A stretch of DNA of 64,000 nucleotides from Candidatus Krumholzibacteriota bacterium (GTDB lineage: Bacteria; Krumholzibacteriota; Krumholzibacteriia; JAJRXK01), in assembly GCA_963727455.1 (NCBI GenBank), contig CAVSGG010000006.1, positions 96,001 through 160,000 of the forward strand. Direction: 5' to 3'. The notes below the pieces were generated by a model. The model was given only the letters and a program-made list of their open reading frames with translations. It was not told where the DNA came from and searched no databases. Below, in pieces: positions 8,247 through 13,640 of this stretch; within the stretch, counting starts at the first letter, position 1, and each line of letters begins with the position of its first letter. Position numbers and translations under genes: made by a program.

Positions 8247-8822
8247 ATGAAGATGGATCGACCTGCATTCAACCGCCTCCTGCTCGAGCAGAAGGACGCC
8301 GTCTATGGACTGGCGGTGCATCTGCTCAATTCGAGGGAAGAGGCGCAGGACGTGGTGCAGGACGTTTTCCTGAAGCTCTGGCGGAAAGGCGGCGCGGTCG
8401 AGGTCCAGTCGCGGCCGGCCTGGCTGCTCCGGGTTTGTCGAAACGCCTGCCTGGACCGGCTGCGGCGGCGCAAGGTTCGCCGCCACCATCGGGCCGACCC
8501 CAGCCAGATCAAACTGGGCGTCGGCTCACCCCGCGAGTTCGATGGGGACTCTGGGCGAGAGCTTTCCTTCGACCTCAGTGACGAGGGAGCCGGCGCCCAA
8601 CAGGTCGAGGATCGAAGCGAGGTACGGAGGATCGTGGCTGCGATGCAAAGACTGAGCGAGCCTCAGCGTTCGATCATCATGATGCGGGAGCTGCAGGGTT
8701 TCAGCTACGAGGAAATTGCCTCGACGACGGAACTCTCGCTCTCAGCAGTGAAGGTGAGTCTGCACCGCGCGCGCAAGAAAGTGCGACGGATCTTCGAGGA
8801 GGCAAAGGAGGTGCAAGCGTGA
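8247..8822 (+). CDS. ECF RNA polymerase sigma factor
   Basis: Region 2 (EAQDVVQDVFLKLW, WLLRVCRNACLDRLRR) and region 4 (LSEPQRSIIMMRELQGFSYEEIA...AVKVSLHRARKK). Confidence 0.93.
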   Translation: MKMDRPAFNRLLLEQKDAVYGLAVHLLNSREEAQDVVQDVFLKLWRKGGAVEVQSRPAWLLRVCRNACLDRLRRRKVRRHHRADPSQIKLGVGSPREFDGDSGRELSFDLSDEGAGAQQVEDRSEVRRIVAAMQRLSEPQRSIIMMRELQGFSYEEIASTTELSLSAVKVSLHRARKKVRRIFEEAKEVQA

Positions 8823-9373
8823 ACGGCGACGAAAAATTCTTCGAAGAGAAGATGCGCGACTACCAGGCCCCCCGTTGCCCCGAGGAACTCGTCGATCGCA
8901 TCATGGCGCGAGTCGATGCCGAACCGCACCGCAAGTCTTTCGGCTCCTGGTGGGCGCTCTTCCGTTTCAAGTACGCTCTGGTGCCTGCCGCTGCGCTCGT
9001 GGTATTGCTCTTCGTGCTACTGCGCCCCGCGCCTCAGCCGCCCTCGACTCCATTGCCCGAGCACGAAACACCACAAGTGGCGATCGCCCCGCCCGAAACC
9101 ACTTCGACTCCGTGTGAGCTCGATCTACAGGAAATTCTTCGCCGCCTGGGAGCCAAGGATCGCGCGGAACTGGCGTACGACGACACGACTCTCTGCGAGG
9201 CGGCCGAGGATGTGCGCATGGCCCTGAACCTCATGGGCAAGGCCATGCATTCGACGGAACGCGTGTTGCGGAATGAAACCCGCAGACGCGTTGCCGATAC
9301 CGTGAGAATGGGGCTCGAAGCGTCGGGTGTATCGCCCGCGTCCGATGCCGCGAATCCCAAAAACGGCGGCTGA
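8819..9373 (+). CDS. Putative single-TM anti-sigma factor
   Basis: 4-nt overlap with the sigma stop; short cytoplasmic N-domain (APRCPEELVDRIMARV), one TM helix, Pro-rich linker, helical C-domain. Confidence 0.65.
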   Translation: MNGDEKFFEEKMRDYQAPRCPEELVDRIMARVDAEPHRKSFGSWWALFRFKYALVPAAALVVLLFVLLRPAPQPPSTPLPEHETPQVAIAPPETTSTPCELDLQEILRRLGAKDRAELAYDDTTLCEAAEDVRMALNLMGKAMHSTERVLRNETRRRVADTVRMGLEASGVSPASDAANPKNGG

Positions 9374-9405
9374 GATCAGCCGCCACAACCATCGGAGACC
9401 ATGTC

Positions 9406-10041
9406 ATGCGTAAATCTCTTCTCGCTCTGGCGATCGTGGTGTTTCTCGCCCCCGTGGCGTTGGCCCGCGCGGACCAGAACAACCTTTCGGGCGAACCCGG
9501 ATACATCGACCTCAACAGCCTCAAGACTTTCGACCGCGGCAAGAGCGTGGTGGAAATCTCGTTGACGCAACCCTTGCTGAGTCTGGCCCGCTGGGCCGTC
9601 GTGGATGACGATCCGGAGATGGCCGAGATGTTGGGCGGCCTGAAGCTTTTGCAGGTCAACGTCTTCTCCTACCCCCTGAGCGAGGGAAAGAGCCTCTCCG
9701 CGAGTCTGGAGGACGTCGCGGGAAAGCTCGCCACACAGGGTTGGAATTCGGTGGTGAAGGTGAAACAGAAGAACGAAACCTGGCACATCATGGTGAAGAT
9801 GGACGAGAAGGGCGGAACCAAGGGTGCGCCCCTGCTCAACGGGGTGGCGATCCTGGGAATGGGCGACGAGAACAGCGACATTCACTATGAGGAAGGCGAC
9901 GGGTTGGAAGCGGTGTTCGTGAACGTGGTGGGCAATCTCGACTTCGCCCAGCTCAGCAAGCTCGGCAAGCATTTTGATCTGCCGATGCTGGAGAAGCTGG
10001 ACGCCAAGGACGCGGGCAAGGCCCAGGGCAGCGCTCAGTAG
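9406..10041 (+). CDS. DUF4252-family exported protein
   Basis: Signal peptide; PGYID, VVEISLTQPLL, GLKLLQV, GWNSVVKVK, VFVNVVGNLDFAQLSKLG; ECF-antisigma-DUF4252 is a familiar arrangement. Confidence 0.8.
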   Translation: MRKSLLALAIVVFLAPVALARADQNNLSGEPGYIDLNSLKTFDRGKSVVEISLTQPLLSLARWAVVDDDPEMAEMLGGLKLLQVNVFSYPLSEGKSLSASLEDVAGKLATQGWNSVVKVKQKNETWHIMVKMDEKGGTKGAPLLNGVAILGMGDENSDIHYEEGDGLEAVFVNVVGNLDFAQLSKLGKHFDLPMLEKLDAKDAGKAQGSAQ

Positions 10042-10098
10042 GGCCGAATTCGACCAAAACAGGCCCGGATTTTTTGCCGCTGGGGCGCTCTTCCGGCC

Positions 10099-10127
10099 TG
10101 GAAAAAGAACTTTGAAAGTACTAAACT
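10099..10127 (+). promoter_or_regulatory. Putative sigma70 promoter TGGAAA-N17-TAAACT
   Basis: AT-rich patch in a GC-rich context; -35 at 10099-10104, -10 at 10122-10127; faces a region with no convincing CDS. Confidence 0.45.
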
Positions 10128-10129
10128 AA

Positions 10130-10164
10130 GGAGGCCGGCATTCTGAATCAGGATGCCGGCCTTC
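10130..10164 (+). terminator. 16-bp hairpin (terminator of the ECF operon, or 5' domain of the downstream RNA)
   Basis: GGAGGCCGGCATTCTG-AAT-CAGGATGCCGGCCTTC; two G-U pairs on + strand; weak U-tract. Confidence 0.45.
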
Positions 10165-10200
10165 TCATGTCAGCTACGGCAAGTTCGGTCCTTCAGCCCC

Positions 10201-10392
10201 GAGGGGATGTGAGTTCGCGACATCGAGACAGGAGCAGGCTGGCACACGGGCGCCGCCAGTGCTCGCCTGGGTGAACTCGCTGGGCGTGGTGAGTACCTGG
10301 GTTGGACTCGATGAGGTTCCGCTGGTCGAATTGGGGACTGGGACCTCCCCGTCGACCGCGAAGGCGGATCCCAAGGCGACTCACGTCCCCTC
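10201..10392 (+). ncRNA. Candidate structured ncRNA of unknown family (~190 nt)
   Basis: Nested helices: 10201-10214/10379-10392 (14 bp, one G-U), 10221-10227/10307-10313, 10315-10322/10364-10371, 10324-10329/10352-10357, 10333-10337/10346-10350; lies between convergent genes. Confidence 0.55.
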
Positions 10393-10398
10393 ATCCTT

Positions 10399-10998
10399 CT
10401 ACTGGCGGATCAGATCTTCCTTGGACAACAGACGCGCGTGGAGATCGGTGAGGCTCGCGCTGCCCGAGAGGTTCGTCAGCGCAGGTCCGCCGGGAGTCCG
10501 CGCGTAGATATCCACGCGGAGCCAGACCTCGTTTCCACTGAAGAGTTCCAGGGTGTCCTGGTCGAGCTGGGTGCTCCCGTTCACCGGGGTCACGGTCGCG
10601 TCCTGTACGGAGACCGGAATGCTCATGATCGGGGTCGTGCTGGCGGTGGCGTCAGCGGCAGTCGCTCCCAGGAAGAGATCGAAACGCAGCTCGGCTTCAC
10701 CGCTCTGGTTGTCGAACTCTCCCTTGAGGTAGAGGGTTCCTTCCTCCATGAGAGACGCAGTGCCCAGACCCTCAAGAAGATCGATCTTCGTGGGTGGGAT
10801 GAGGTCTACCACTGGCACCCAGGTGCCGGTGGGCGGGACCTCGGCCGCGTAGTCCGTGCTCAAATCCTCTTCGTTGATGAAACTCAGGAAGTCGAGATTC
10901 AGAATGATGGTTCCACCGGCACAGGCCAAGAGCAGAAGGAAGGTCACGGCGACGAGCGAGCGCGAAGTCTTCAGGCGTTGGAAAATCGATTTCTTCAT
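10399..10998 (-). CDS. Hypothetical lipoprotein/exported beta-sandwich protein
   Basis: Basic N-terminus, hydrophobic stretch, LLA-C; beta-rich acidic body; 11 nt downstream of the barrel gene. Confidence 0.7.
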   Translation of the reverse strand: MKKSIFQRLKTSRSLVAVTFLLLLACAGGTIILNLDFLSFINEEDLSTDYAAEVPPTGTWVPVVDLIPPTKIDLLEGLGTASLMEEGTLYLKGEFDNQSGEAELRFDLFLGATAADATASTTPIMSIPVSVQDATVTPVNGSTQLDQDTLELFSGNEVWLRVDIYARTPGGPALTNLSGSASLTDLHARLLSKEDLIRQ

Positions 10999-11009
10999 GA
11001 CGCGCGTCC

Positions 11010-12383
11010 CTAGTAAAGCGTGACCGCGAGGCCCATCGAAACTCCCCGGTTCTGGGTTAAACCGAGGTTGTGAGTCTGGAATCCCGCATCGATTCCCCAG
11101 GGGCCCAGACGGAAGCCCGCGCCCCAGCTACCCTGCATGCGGCTGCGCTGATCGCGGAGAAACCCGCCGCGCACGGCCAGCCACCGGTTCAGCCAGAACT
11201 CGCCCCCTCCGTGAACGCTCAGCCCACCGGGTTGCTCCACCACGCTCGCCGCCAGCAAGTAGCGATCGCCCAGCCAGCTCGCATTGGTCATCCAGCTCAC
11301 AGGAATCTCCGTGCAGCTTACGAAATGTTGGGCGACGTTCTCGGTGATGACCTCGTTAAAATCCGGATCGAGATACGAGTGGTCCAGTTGCGTGTTCTTC
11401 CAGGTGAGGTCGGCGAAGATGTCGGCCACTCCCGCTCCGATTTCCAGTCTTCCCGAGCGCCACACTGCGCCCAGATCGATGGCATTTCCGTATCCCACGC
11501 TGCTGACGCTGTTGGGCCAGGCGCGCTGGTAGTCGGCCTGGAAGCTGGCGTCGAAGGTGTCGGTGTCCGAGGTGGAGAAAATCGGATCGCCGCTGTGCAA
11601 TCCCAGATCTCCGTCGAGACGCACGTAGCCGCCGCCGAAGTAGTGCCGGTATCCCGCGCCGAACCAGAGACCGCCGCCCTCACCATCGGTGCCGCCGTTT
11701 CCCTCCTCGCTCAAGGGCACCGCCCAGGCGAGGCCGCTCGAGAATCCGGCCTGCATGAGCGCGCTGGCGCTCGCAGTGTAGTCGGTGGATGGAGTGACCG
11801 GCTCCGCGTCGGCCAGCACCTTCACCAACTCCTCATCCAGATTGAAGTCGACCTGGGTCTGGATGAAGGGCCGCATGAGACTCAAATGGAGAAGCCCCGC
11901 GCCATCTCCCAGTCCGAAGTTCAGTCCGAGATCGGCGGGGCTGCCCATGCTCCCCATGGTGAAGCCGTCGCGCGGTATGACCTCGCGCGCATCCTTCAGA
12001 TCGAACACGAGCTGGTCCTGTCCCAGCCAGATCTCGAGTCCCTGGTCGGGGTCGTGGGGTTGCTTGAACTCCCAGGCCCAGGGAACGTTCGTGATGAAAT
12101 TGACGATGCCGATGGCGCTGAAGTCCTCGCTGTCGGGATCGAGCTCGGGGAAGTACTTGAGGAATTGAATGACCCCGATGGGTACGGGGATCGAGGTGGT
12201 CTTCTTGGAAACGCGCGGCGGAACCGCGCGGTAGGCCGGATTGATGCGGGCGAGACTGCCCGAGCCCTGATCGAGACTGACGCCACCCATGGCCATGCCG
12301 CGCGCATCGTAGCCCTGTGCAACGGCGCTGCCCGGCGCGAGCAGAAACAGCACAGCTACGGCGATCAGCAGGCTTTGGCGCAT
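11010..12383 (-). CDS. Outer-membrane beta-barrel (FadL/TraF/DUF5723-like)
   Basis: Start moved to ATG 12383 (MRQSLLIAVAV signal peptide); ARGMAMGG plug-like motif; GYGNAIDLGAVW, HGGGEFW...LAVRGG; C-terminal aromatic (LAVTLY). Confidence 0.75.
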   Translation of the reverse strand: MRQSLLIAVAVLFLLAPGSAVAQGYDARGMAMGGVSLDQGSGSLARINPAYRAVPPRVSKKTTSIPVPIGVIQFLKYFPELDPDSEDFSAIGIVNFITNVPWAWEFKQPHDPDQGLEIWLGQDQLVFDLKDAREVIPRDGFTMGSMGSPADLGLNFGLGDGAGLLHLSLMRPFIQTQVDFNLDEELVKVLADAEPVTPSTDYTASASALMQAGFSSGLAWAVPLSEEGNGGTDGEGGGLWFGAGYRHYFGGGYVRLDGDLGLHSGDPIFSTSDTDTFDASFQADYQRAWPNSVSSVGYGNAIDLGAVWRSGRLEIGAGVADIFADLTWKNTQLDHSYLDPDFNEVITENVAQHFVSCTEIPVSWMTNASWLGDRYLLAASVVEQPGGLSVHGGGEFWLNRWLAVRGGFLRDQRSRMQGSWGAGFRLGPWGIDAGFQTHNLGLTQNRGVSMGLAVTLY

Positions 12384-12629
12384 GGTGAGCCACTTTCGGG
12401 GTTGAGCGATCCGAGTCGGATCAAGCAAGTAGCTCGCCGCTTTCTTGCCCGCGTCGAAAGAGGCGCGCTCGGGCGGCAAACCGAGCCGCCGCGAGCGCTT
12501 CGTCCGCAATCGGAGTTTCCTTCCTTCGATGGAGAGAGATGGCCATCTGGAGTATGATTTTCCACCGCAGGATTCTGTGGGAGCTGCGCCGGGTCCTGCC
12601 GCGCGGCCGGCATAGAGGAGCGAAAGTTC

Positions 12630-13640
12630 ATGGATGCAGTGACGATTGCCCGCGGCTCGCGGCGCTGGTTCCGAGCGCCCCAGCTTCTGGCCCTTCTGGC
12701 CCTGTGCCTCATTGCGTGTAAGGCCGAGCCCGGGGGAAAACAGCACCGCCCCGGCTCGAGCGCGTCGGTGGATGAGGGGTTTTCGCTTCTCTCCCATGCG
12801 ATGGTCGACAGTGTGGAGCAGGCCTACCTGGGCTATGCCAGCGACGATCTGCGGGTGACAGGTTATCTCTTCATCGCGCCCTACAGCCAGCTCGAAGTCG
12901 AACCCTGCCTGATCTTCAACCACGGGGGAGTCAACGGAGTCTCCGAGGCGGTGAAGGCCAAGTGCCGCTGGCTCGCCAAGCAGGGATACCTGGTGTTCGC
13001 GCCCAGCTACCGGGGAGAGGACGACAGCCAAGGCCGCGTGGAGGTTGCCGCCGGCGAGGTGGACGACGTCCTGGCCGCCATGGCTCTCTTGGAGAAGCAC
13101 CCCGGCGTGGATCCGAGTCGCTTCGTCATGCTGGGGACCAGCCACGGAGCGTTGATCTCGGTGAAGGCAGCGACCCGTCCGCTCGGCAAACGGCTTCTAC
13201 GTGGTGTGGTTGCGGCCTACGGCGTGATGGACATCTATGCGTGGTATCAGTATCTGCTCGACAACGACTTCGACACCACCGACTCCCTCAGCGTCCGCGT
13301 CTACGGAACCGGTCCGAAGGACAAGCCAGAAGCCTTTGCCAAGCGGCAGGTGTTGACTCTCCTCGACAAGCTCGGTCCCGCCCCCATCCTGTTGGTCCAG
13401 GGAGCCAAGGACCGAATCGTCCCGGTGGAGCAGGCCAGGATCATGGCCGCGGCCCTGAAAAAGGCGGGCAGGACACAGGATCTGTTGCGCGTGTATCCTG
13501 AGGGAGCCCATGGATTCCTCTTCTGGGATGATCCCGCGCTTCATTCCAAGGAGGAACTGGCGGCATCGGAGAAGGCGTGGCGCGACATCCTCCAGTTCTT
13601 CAGAGCCACAGTCGGCACCAAGGCATCGGGTCCGAACTGA
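12630..13640 (+). CDS. Alpha/beta hydrolase, S9 (prolyl oligopeptidase-like) family lipoprotein
   Basis: Lipobox LIA-C; FNHGG, APSYRG, GTSHG nucleophile elbow, QGAKDRIVP, YPEGAHGF. Confidence 0.88.
   Translation: MDAVTIARGSRRWFRAPQLLALLALCLIACKAEPGGKQHRPGSSASVDEGFSLLSHAMVDSVEQAYLGYASDDLRVTGYLFIAPYSQLEVEPCLIFNHGGVNGVSEAVKAKCRWLAKQGYLVFAPSYRGEDDSQGRVEVAAGEVDDVLAAMALLEKHPGVDPSRFVMLGTSHGALISVKAATRPLGKRLLRGVVAAYGVMDIYAWYQYLLDNDFDTTDSLSVRVYGTGPKDKPEAFAKRQVLTLLDKLGPAPILLVQGAKDRIVPVEQARIMAAALKKAGRTQDLLRVYPEGAHGFLFWDDPALHSKEELAASEKAWRDILQFFRATVGTKASGPN

Follow-up and report, generated by a model that had tools for sequence, protein, structure and literature searches.

The locus and its structured element

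The window analysed here is a 64-kb stretch of DNA from a Candidatus Krumholzibacteriota bacterium (contig CAVSGG010000006.1, positions 96,001 to 160,000; assembly G000, 88.85% complete with 6.68% contamination). Our subject is a structured element at 10099-10392 of the window, on the forward (+) strand, within a gap of 357 bp between two convergent stop codons, the TAG of a + strand gene (10039-10041) and the stop of a - strand gene (10399-10401). A first-pass annotation, made from the sequence letters, had read this element as an unrecognised RNA with its own promoter. The coordinates confirm its account of the gap and its point that the element is not the 5' leader of either flanking gene, the next gene (10399-10998) being on the opposite strand. 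G and L numbers denote other genomes and loci, and g1 denotes the genus of the window.

The upstream gene (9406-10041, +) lies outside the RNA and encodes a DUF4252 protein (Pfam PF14060, E 9.4e-12). It is followed by a weak hairpin and a T6 run (10070-10075; the whole at 10041-10075, +, fold -11.6 kcal/mol), which, judged from its sequence, probably terminates the upstream gene and so separates the upstream transcript from the RNA. The G001 homologue likewise has a T6 run, behind another hairpin; a generic terminator scan did not report the hairpin at 10041-10075. The convergent gene (10399-10998, -) encodes a protein of 199 amino acids (aa) with a lipoprotein-like N-terminus and no match in Pfam or NCBIfam; it neighbours all copies of the short form of the RNA, the form found in the window.

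The + strand RNA at 10099-10392 folds to -145.5 kcal/mol, compared with -114.2 +/- 6.1 kcal/mol for 200 dinucleotide shuffles, a comparison that the first-pass annotation had proposed and in which none of the 200 shuffles was as stable (z -5.12). The - strand of the same stretch folds to -128.1 kcal/mol (z -4.71), and the + fold is thus the more stable by 17 kcal/mol. At its 5' side the RNA forms a hairpin in which 17 pairs are capped by a 3-nt loop (10129-10165, +), one pair longer than the 16-bp hairpin first noted at 10130-10164. Its fold energy is -31.1 kcal/mol on the + strand and -25.5 kcal/mol on the - strand, where it is weaker because of G-U pairs. This hairpin probably forms the 5' end of the RNA and, read on the - strand, might also serve the convergent gene as a terminator. 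In alignment A9, two of its pairs differ by compensatory changes between G000 and G001, and a hairpin follows the -10 element in 6/6 short-form loci. In G004 (L132 1360-1470) promoter and core are separated by a pair of related hairpins, each centred on TCGAAATGCC, in place of the single 5' hairpin. A linker (10166-10200, +), poorly conserved in alignment A9, leads from the 5' hairpin to the core.

The core (10201-10392, +) is common to the whole family and is matched by two covariance models, R1 and R2, at 10196-10400 with 237 and 200.7 bits. It forms a junction of ~190 nt with two arms, closed by helix P1 (10201-10218 / 10376-10392, 17 pairs). The 14-bp closing helix of the first-pass annotation, GAGGGGATGTGAGT/ACTCACGTCCCCTC at 10201-10214 / 10379-10392, is part of P1 and reaches 17 pairs through a CGC/GCG extension. 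Arm P2 (10221-10313, +) starts with the helix 10221-10227 / 10307-10313 and branches into P2a (10232-10243 / 10255-10264) and P2b (10265-10282 / 10287-10302), and arm P3 (10315-10371, +; 10315-10337 / 10346-10371) ends in loop L3. Both the minimum-free-energy fold and the consensus supported by covariation contain most of the inner pairings proposed earlier, namely CATCGAG/CTCGATG (the base of P2), CTGGC/GCCAG, GGTTCCGC/GCGGATCC, GGTCGA/TCGACC and GGGGA/TCCCC. The pairing TGCTCGCC/GGTGAGTA found no support, and this region instead forms GAGC/GCTC, GCCTGGGT/ACCTGGGT and CTCGCTG/TGGTGAG. A further candidate pairing, between L3 and a GGTCC of the linker, was dropped; G003 reads GGGCC at this site.

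Compensatory changes, strand and invariant loops

BLAST found the element in three other g1 genomes at 98%, 83% and 73% identity. Model R1 was built from the four short-form sequences and model R2 from 13 sequences. The search for homologues and covariation suggested by the first-pass annotation gave strong covariation. For 18 distinct sequences there are 1197 pair cells, of which 91.3% hold a standard pair, as opposed to 38-45% when partners are slid by 1-3 columns; 56/69 base pairs are changed on both sides, each of the ten helices has support, and 0/500 shuffles reach any of these measures. The double changes are found throughout the core, in 13/17 pairs of P1, 25/32 pairs of helices 2-6 (arm P2, 85-99% paired) and 18/20 pairs of helices 7-10 (arm P3). 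An independent MAFFT/RNAalifold alignment of 19 sequences recovered 29 of the pairs, 24 of them with double changes, and the four short-form sequences on their own show compensatory double changes in 11/69 predicted pairs.

Wobble pairs bear on the strand. Across the pair cells of the family, G-U cells number 142 and A-C cells 17 when read in the + orientation, and therefore the + strand is the RNA, as had been argued earlier from the G-U pairs of the window copy.

While the stems are freely rewritten by compensatory changes and the junctions are not conserved, the apical loops are fixed. In alignment A7, with its 18 distinct sequences, loop L2a with its closing pair (CACACGGGCGCCG, 10243-10255, +), which contains the palindrome GGCGCC, and loop L3 (GGGACC, 10340-10345, +) are invariant in 18/18, and loop L2b (GGGCGTGG, 10282-10289, +) is kept in 17/18. 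Even the most divergent copy of the family, in G006 (54 bits), in which L2a reads CAGTCGGGCGCCG, keeps CGGGCGCC and the GGGACC of L3; the L2b motif is missing from this copy and from the G007 copy (L137). The GGCGCC palindrome gives a predicted loop-loop self-duplex of -11.7 kcal/mol, and pairings of L2a with L2b (-7.8 kcal/mol) and of L2a with L3 (-4.8 kcal/mol) are also predicted. All bases of these loop-loop pairings are invariant, and the pairings are for this reason beyond the reach of covariation. The loss of L2b in two copies argues that the contact between L2a and L2b is not essential.

Candidate promoter and predicted transcript ends

The promoter candidate (10099-10127, +; score 8/12) consists of a -35 element TGGAAA (10099-10104), a 17-nt spacer and a -10 element TAAACT (10122-10127), and the start predicted from it, near 10132-10134, falls at the base of the 5' hairpin. 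Its hexamers are conserved across the five other short-form loci over a diverging spacer. TGGAAA-17-TAAACT is unchanged in G003, G001 and L174, with 2 spacer differences in G001 and 3 in L174; G004 has TGGAAA-17-TAATCT with a largely different spacer, and L181 has TTGGAA-17-TATACT. The promoters of the transfer-messenger RNA (tmRNA) and the RNase P RNA in these genomes, TTGCGC-16-TAGAAT and TGGACG-18-TAGACT, resemble these hexamers.

On its 3' side, P1 is followed by a pyrimidine-rich tail (ATCCTTCT, 10393-10400, +) that touches the convergent stop codon, and similar tails follow P1 family-wide. Such C/U-rich tails (CCTTCT, CCTCC and similar) occur in the short form, in the long form and in the copies linked to CYTH genes, which are described below; in the latter, the tail occupies the position expected of a ribosome-binding site. 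From promoter and tail, the window RNA is predicted to extend from ~10132 to ~10400, a transcript of ~260-270 nt.

Comparison with known RNAs, repeats and reading frames

We searched the covariance models of Rfam 15 (4227 families), taking the gathering score as the match threshold, and found no match in the 64-kb window. At E <= 10 the only hits were chance matches to MIR7991, MIR1846 and mir-133, on hairpins, with 15-22 bits against cut-offs of 55-78, and at E <= 0.1 nine homologous loci, long forms included, gave no match. These results bear out the statement, made from the sequence, that the element carries no signature of RNase P RNA, tmRNA, signal recognition particle (SRP) RNA or a common riboswitch. 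The 6S RNA (RF00013), tmRNA (RF00023) and SRP RNA (RF00169) of assembly G000 are located elsewhere in the assembly. RNase P RNA (RF00010) has no match in G000, which, at 88.85% completeness, is most likely an assembly gap. We also considered the longer paralogues of ~420 nt as RNase P RNA and rejected this, as 9/9 relatives carrying the RNA have a normal RF00010 elsewhere, with 273-302 bits.

A BLAST search of 10090-10400 against the whole assembly returned one full-length copy and a 58-nt match to the loop region of a paralogue, which settles the question of genome copy number raised in the first-pass annotation at one full-length copy in this assembly. None of the repeat families in the window includes the element, and no direct repeats of the kind left as target-site duplications flank P1 in the sequence. 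The idea that the element is mobile, with the 14-bp helix as its terminal inverted repeats, did not hold. A miniature inverted-repeat transposable element was rejected on its single full-length copy, on its covarying P1 arms and on its paralogues, which share structure (54-55 bits) and not sequence ends. The P1 arms change by compensatory substitution and therefore behave as an RNA helix, not as a transposase-binding end.

The first-pass annotation had also named a conserved small open reading frame (ORF) as an explanation that would undo its reading. An ORF of 74 aa is present (10170-10394, -); its product is a low-complexity sequence rich in Pro, Arg and Ser, without a Pfam match, and we rejected it as a small protein. 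The homologue cores are 205, 206, 211 and 203 nt long, and single-base indels break the frame of the ORF in them. When tested against a protein-coding reading, the substitutions in the helices were compensatory.

Distribution and three genomic settings

Model R1 gave full-length matches in 9/10 genomes of the family (g1 genomes having two or three each), and model R2, under normal filters, found a full-length RNA in 10/10 genomes of the order. Under stricter filters R2 matched within one family only (9/151 genomes of the phylum and 6/41 of the class), and the other families of the phylum that were sampled gave no match under these filters. The weak G006 copy was missed under the stricter filters, and weak relatives elsewhere could therefore be missed as well. 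A strict three-block sequence pattern gave 8/8 true matches on genome contigs, all in genomes already found, and 13 matches on metagenome contigs, 11 of which were confirmed by the model; these added five new variants. The other two metagenome matches, L179 and L182, are identical to one another and were set aside as chance matches inside a coding region. A loose DNA pattern gave at least 120 stretches, and among 80 of these loci R1 recognised 2, together with one chance-level match (E 0.42). A search for CYTH orthologues with a 4-sequence alignment, for more upstream RNAs, led to 2 loci, apparently in genomes of the order already found.

The RNA occurs in three settings. In the genera g2, g3 and g4 each genome has a single copy, located downstream of a large M14-peptidase-like gene and immediately before the genome's sole CYTH gene, which is on the same strand (5/5 genomes for both). 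We take CYTH to be a triphosphate-tunnel enzyme family. Metagenome contigs L173 and L176 share this arrangement, and in the resulting seven loci the RNA ends 18-89 nt from the CYTH start codon. A terminator-like hairpin with a T run precedes the CYTH start in L173 only, and the other six loci have a pyrimidine-rich spacer.

In g1, none of five genomes (89-98% complete) has a CYTH gene (PF01928), and all five keep the RNA. The copy that is syntenic, on the M14 side, is here a long form of ~420 nt. It combines a GGTAGAAT promoter-like element with the core, a domain on its 5' side and a covarying domain on its 3' side, and in G002 and G004 a GC hairpin and a T run follow; the next gene encodes a hexapeptide acetyltransferase. 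Assembly G000 has two such copies, at G000:C8:481957-482390 (-) and G000:C9:212182-212616 (-) (L139 and L141), each with GGTAGAAT and a covarying 3' hairpin domain and each between the M14-peptidase-like and the hexapeptide acetyltransferase genes. Their surroundings, G000:C8:474000-490000 and G000:C9:204000-220000 (L169 and L170), are collinear over 16 kb at ~84% identity throughout, which represents either a large old duplication or a bin that mixes two related populations (contamination 6.68%). In the RNA tree these two copies do not group as sisters.

The third setting is that of the window. The short form is present in 4/5 g1 genomes and was not found by R1 or R2 in G002 (97% complete). 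It is always convergent with the gene for the 199-aa protein, and across six short-form loci P1 ends ~6 to 78 nt from the stop codon of that gene; the upstream gene differs in G004. A tree of the core (18 sequences) separates the short, the long and most of the CYTH-linked forms. The short forms are one clade (support 0.92), apart from the g1 long forms (0.99); the deep node, which would indicate the donor of the duplication, has a support of 0.31.

Of the neighbouring genes, the DUF4252 gene is the last in a + strand row of three (8247-10041), preceded by a gene for an extracytoplasmic function (ECF) sigma factor (8247-8822, +; Pfam ECF sigma domains) and an anti-sigma-like gene for a 184-aa protein (8819-9373, +) with a weak DUF2275 match below the cut-off. 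This row ends just upstream of the RNA promoter, a linkage that is not kept in G004. On the other side, the 199-aa protein and a 711-aa protein form a - strand unit (10399-13145). At its C-terminus the 711-aa protein weakly matches a PorV/PorQ-like family, with 20 bits where the cut-off is 90. The G004 homologue of the 199-aa protein is 59% identical and lies on the same side of the RNA, and L181 is arranged alike.

Interpretation

We conclude that the window encodes a real, maintained RNA which cannot be a 5' leader. The earlier reading of an unrecognised structured RNA on the + strand is supported by the Rfam result, the covariation, the G-U polarity and the conserved promoter. As far as our searches extended, it belongs to an uncatalogued RNA family confined to one Candidatus Krumholzibacteriota order. 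Our favoured reading of this family, to which we give a probability of roughly 60%, is that the core is a recognition module that would bind a partner through its loops, and that the window copy is a stand-alone, trans-acting paralogue of the CYTH-leader RNA. This reading follows from loops and helix geometry that are under selection and from an RNA that outlived the loss of CYTH. The fold, the membership in the family, the strand, the invariance of the loops and the linkage to CYTH with its loss in g1 are demonstrated. We infer the action in trans, the partner and the transcript ends; for the action in trans the ground is that there is no gene for the window copy to control in cis.

We propose the following scenario. 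The older copy would be the one downstream of the M14-peptidase gene, which serves as the 5' leader of the only CYTH gene in three other genera. Genus g1 has lost CYTH and kept the older copy, here an RNA of ~420 nt that has a 3' domain and a terminator to itself; a short second copy was gained. This g1-specific paralogue would be transcribed from TGGAAA-17-TAAACT, giving a 5' hairpin followed by the core closed by P1. The working parts may be the apical loops L2a (ACACGGGCGCC, in all copies), L3 (GGGACC, in all copies) and L2b (GGGCGUGG, in most copies), through which the core would bind one partner, be it a protein, an RNA or a small ligand. Acting in trans, the window copy could then be a binder, a decoy or a scaffold for that partner.

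Several observations weigh against this reading. Fitting to the model biases alignments A5 and A7 towards its structure, the homologues come from only ~10 related genomes and five metagenome variants, and the E-values of the models are rough because the calibration was short. The sigma70-like promoter noted at the outset stands in so far as its hexamers and spacing recur in short-form relatives, but a generic sigma-70 scan, which needs 9/12 matches, found no promoter. The generic scan likewise found no canonical terminator after P1, and transcription may continue antisense into the convergent gene. No RNA run is among the listed sequencing runs that contain parts of this stretch; ten are of DNA type, from wetland, salt-marsh and soil metagenomes. 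L2b is missing in two copies, so not all three loops are essential. Finally, an RNA that leads one gene family in 5/5 genomes resembles a cis-regulator, and the family may be primarily cis-acting, with the window copy an oddity.

Two alternatives concern the link to CYTH. The first, which is tentative and in our view unlikely, is that these RNAs make up a new sensing class connected with CYTH chemistry, whose aptamer-like core became free-standing in g1 and acts there in trans, either as a sink for the ligand or partner or as RNA-only assemblies, long-short or homodimeric, paired through GGCGCC. The second, the main rival to our reading and to us similarly doubtful, is a cis-acting sensor, in which an aptamer-like core would be ancestrally a riboswitch or a protein-binding leader of CYTH and would, in the window, gate antisense read-through into the operon of the 199-aa and 711-aa genes. 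The position directly upstream of the single CYTH gene in 5/5 non-g1 genomes, at 18-89 nt, is as a cis sensor would have it, and so are the 6/7 CYTH-linked loci without a terminator between RNA and CYTH, the 6/6 short-form loci convergent with the 199-aa gene with P1 close to its stop codon, and the pyrimidine-rich tail after P1, which is T-rich in G004. However, the conserved bases lie in the apical loops and not in the junctions, where the pockets for small ligands usually sit. An expression platform based on alternative pairing was not found, although no systematic search for one was made, and the terminator-like hairpin of L173 is 1/7. A 17-bp helix closing an insert of 160 nt would make an inefficient intrinsic terminator, synteny with the 199-aa gene is seen within one genus only and so may simply be inherited, and g1 lost CYTH yet kept two copies of the RNA.

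That the short form is instead a non-functional leftover in decay, duplicated from part of the long RNA, is improbable. It does lack the long form's 5' and 3' domains, and it is absent from G002 at 97% completeness. But the short forms of four lineages keep all three loop motifs, maintain their helices through compensatory changes and retain the promoter hexamers over a diverged spacer, and they form one clade (0.92), so that the copy is old and maintained.

We consider it very improbable that the region is simply the 3' untranslated region and terminator of the - strand 199-aa gene. In this case the hairpin, read from 10164 to 10130, with the T-rich stretch behind it would be the terminator, and indeed TTAGTTTAGTACTTTC comes after the hairpin on the - strand, where the whole region also folds better than its shuffles (z -4.71). 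Against this, the family alignment has 142 G-U cells and 17 A-C cells in the + orientation, the - strand hairpin is weaker by 5.6 kcal/mol and the whole - strand fold by 17 kcal/mol, and the homologues elsewhere are transcribed with their neighbours and have their promoters on the strand of the fold. Least probable of all is a miniature non-autonomous mobile element with the P1 arms as terminal inverted repeats, or a gene for the 74-aa small protein, for although P1 is an inverted repeat of 14-17 bp and the ORF starts with ATG and spans the region, the single full-length copy outside any repeat family of the window, the covariation of P1, the paralogues that share loops and not ends, the low-complexity product without a Pfam match and the indels inside the ORF all speak against it.

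Whichever reading is true, the three invariant loops are precise targets for mutation and probing. We know of no cultured members of the phylum Krumholzibacteriota, of no non-coding RNAs described from it and of no RNA regulator of CYTH/triphosphate metabolism. The present work thus adds a well-supported, uncatalogued family of structured RNA from an uncultured phylum. It also points to a natural experiment, in which the same core is a CYTH leader in three genera and is free-standing, with its own promoter, in a fourth that is without CYTH. If the core binds a ligand, the family would include a riboswitch-type sensor for CYTH/triphosphate metabolism; if it binds a protein or itself, it would represent a new ribonucleoprotein or RNA-only assembly.

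Comparison with known systems

A riboswitch lies in the same-strand 5' untranslated region of the gene that it regulates. The CYTH-linked copies are like riboswitches in this respect, being directly upstream, on the same strand, of one gene family, and in their compact domain closed by P1. Unlike riboswitches, the window copy is not followed by a gene on its own strand, the loops are conserved and not the junctions, no expression platform was recognised, though alternative pairings were not searched systematically, and the RNA survives in a genus without CYTH. Some riboswitch-derived RNAs act in trans or control antisense transcripts, such as SreA/SreB, the B12-controlled AspocR and EutX/Rli55. 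Our RNA is like these in having a leader-type domain outside a leader context, a likeness by arrangement only, and by analogy a free-standing paralogue that faces a convergent gene would fit among them.

Small RNAs of the CsrB/RsmZ type sequester proteins through a repeated loop motif, ANGGA. The window RNA similarly presents several loops with related G-rich motifs (GGGCG, GGGCG and GGGAC), but it has three loops only, GGA occurs in L3 only, and these loops belong to a closed junction domain and not to a string of hairpins. The 6S RNA, a rod with a central bubble, is of similar length and is independently transcribed, as is predicted for the window RNA; the latter is not a rod, and the genome has its own 6S RNA at G000:C5:583654-583833 (60.2 bits). 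The first-pass annotation, too, had judged the element more branched than a typical 6S rod.

There is also a resemblance to the orphan large structured RNAs of bacteria that were found by comparative genomics and are catalogued in Rfam, the raiA motif, OLE, ROOL, GOLLD and HEARO. Like these, the family described here is 200-420 nt in size and multi-branched, with covarying stems, short conserved single-stranded patches and a promoter of its own, and its function cannot be deduced from its neighbours. It differs from them in having no Rfam match, in being found in one Krumholzibacteriota order only and in having two size classes in a single genome. A full-text literature search for structured or non-coding RNA in Krumholzibacteriota, or for a CYTH riboswitch, returned no paper on such an RNA in the texts it covered. 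Overall, orphan structured non-coding RNAs and riboswitch candidates are a familiar kind. What seems to be new is this particular family and its division between leaders and free-standing copies.

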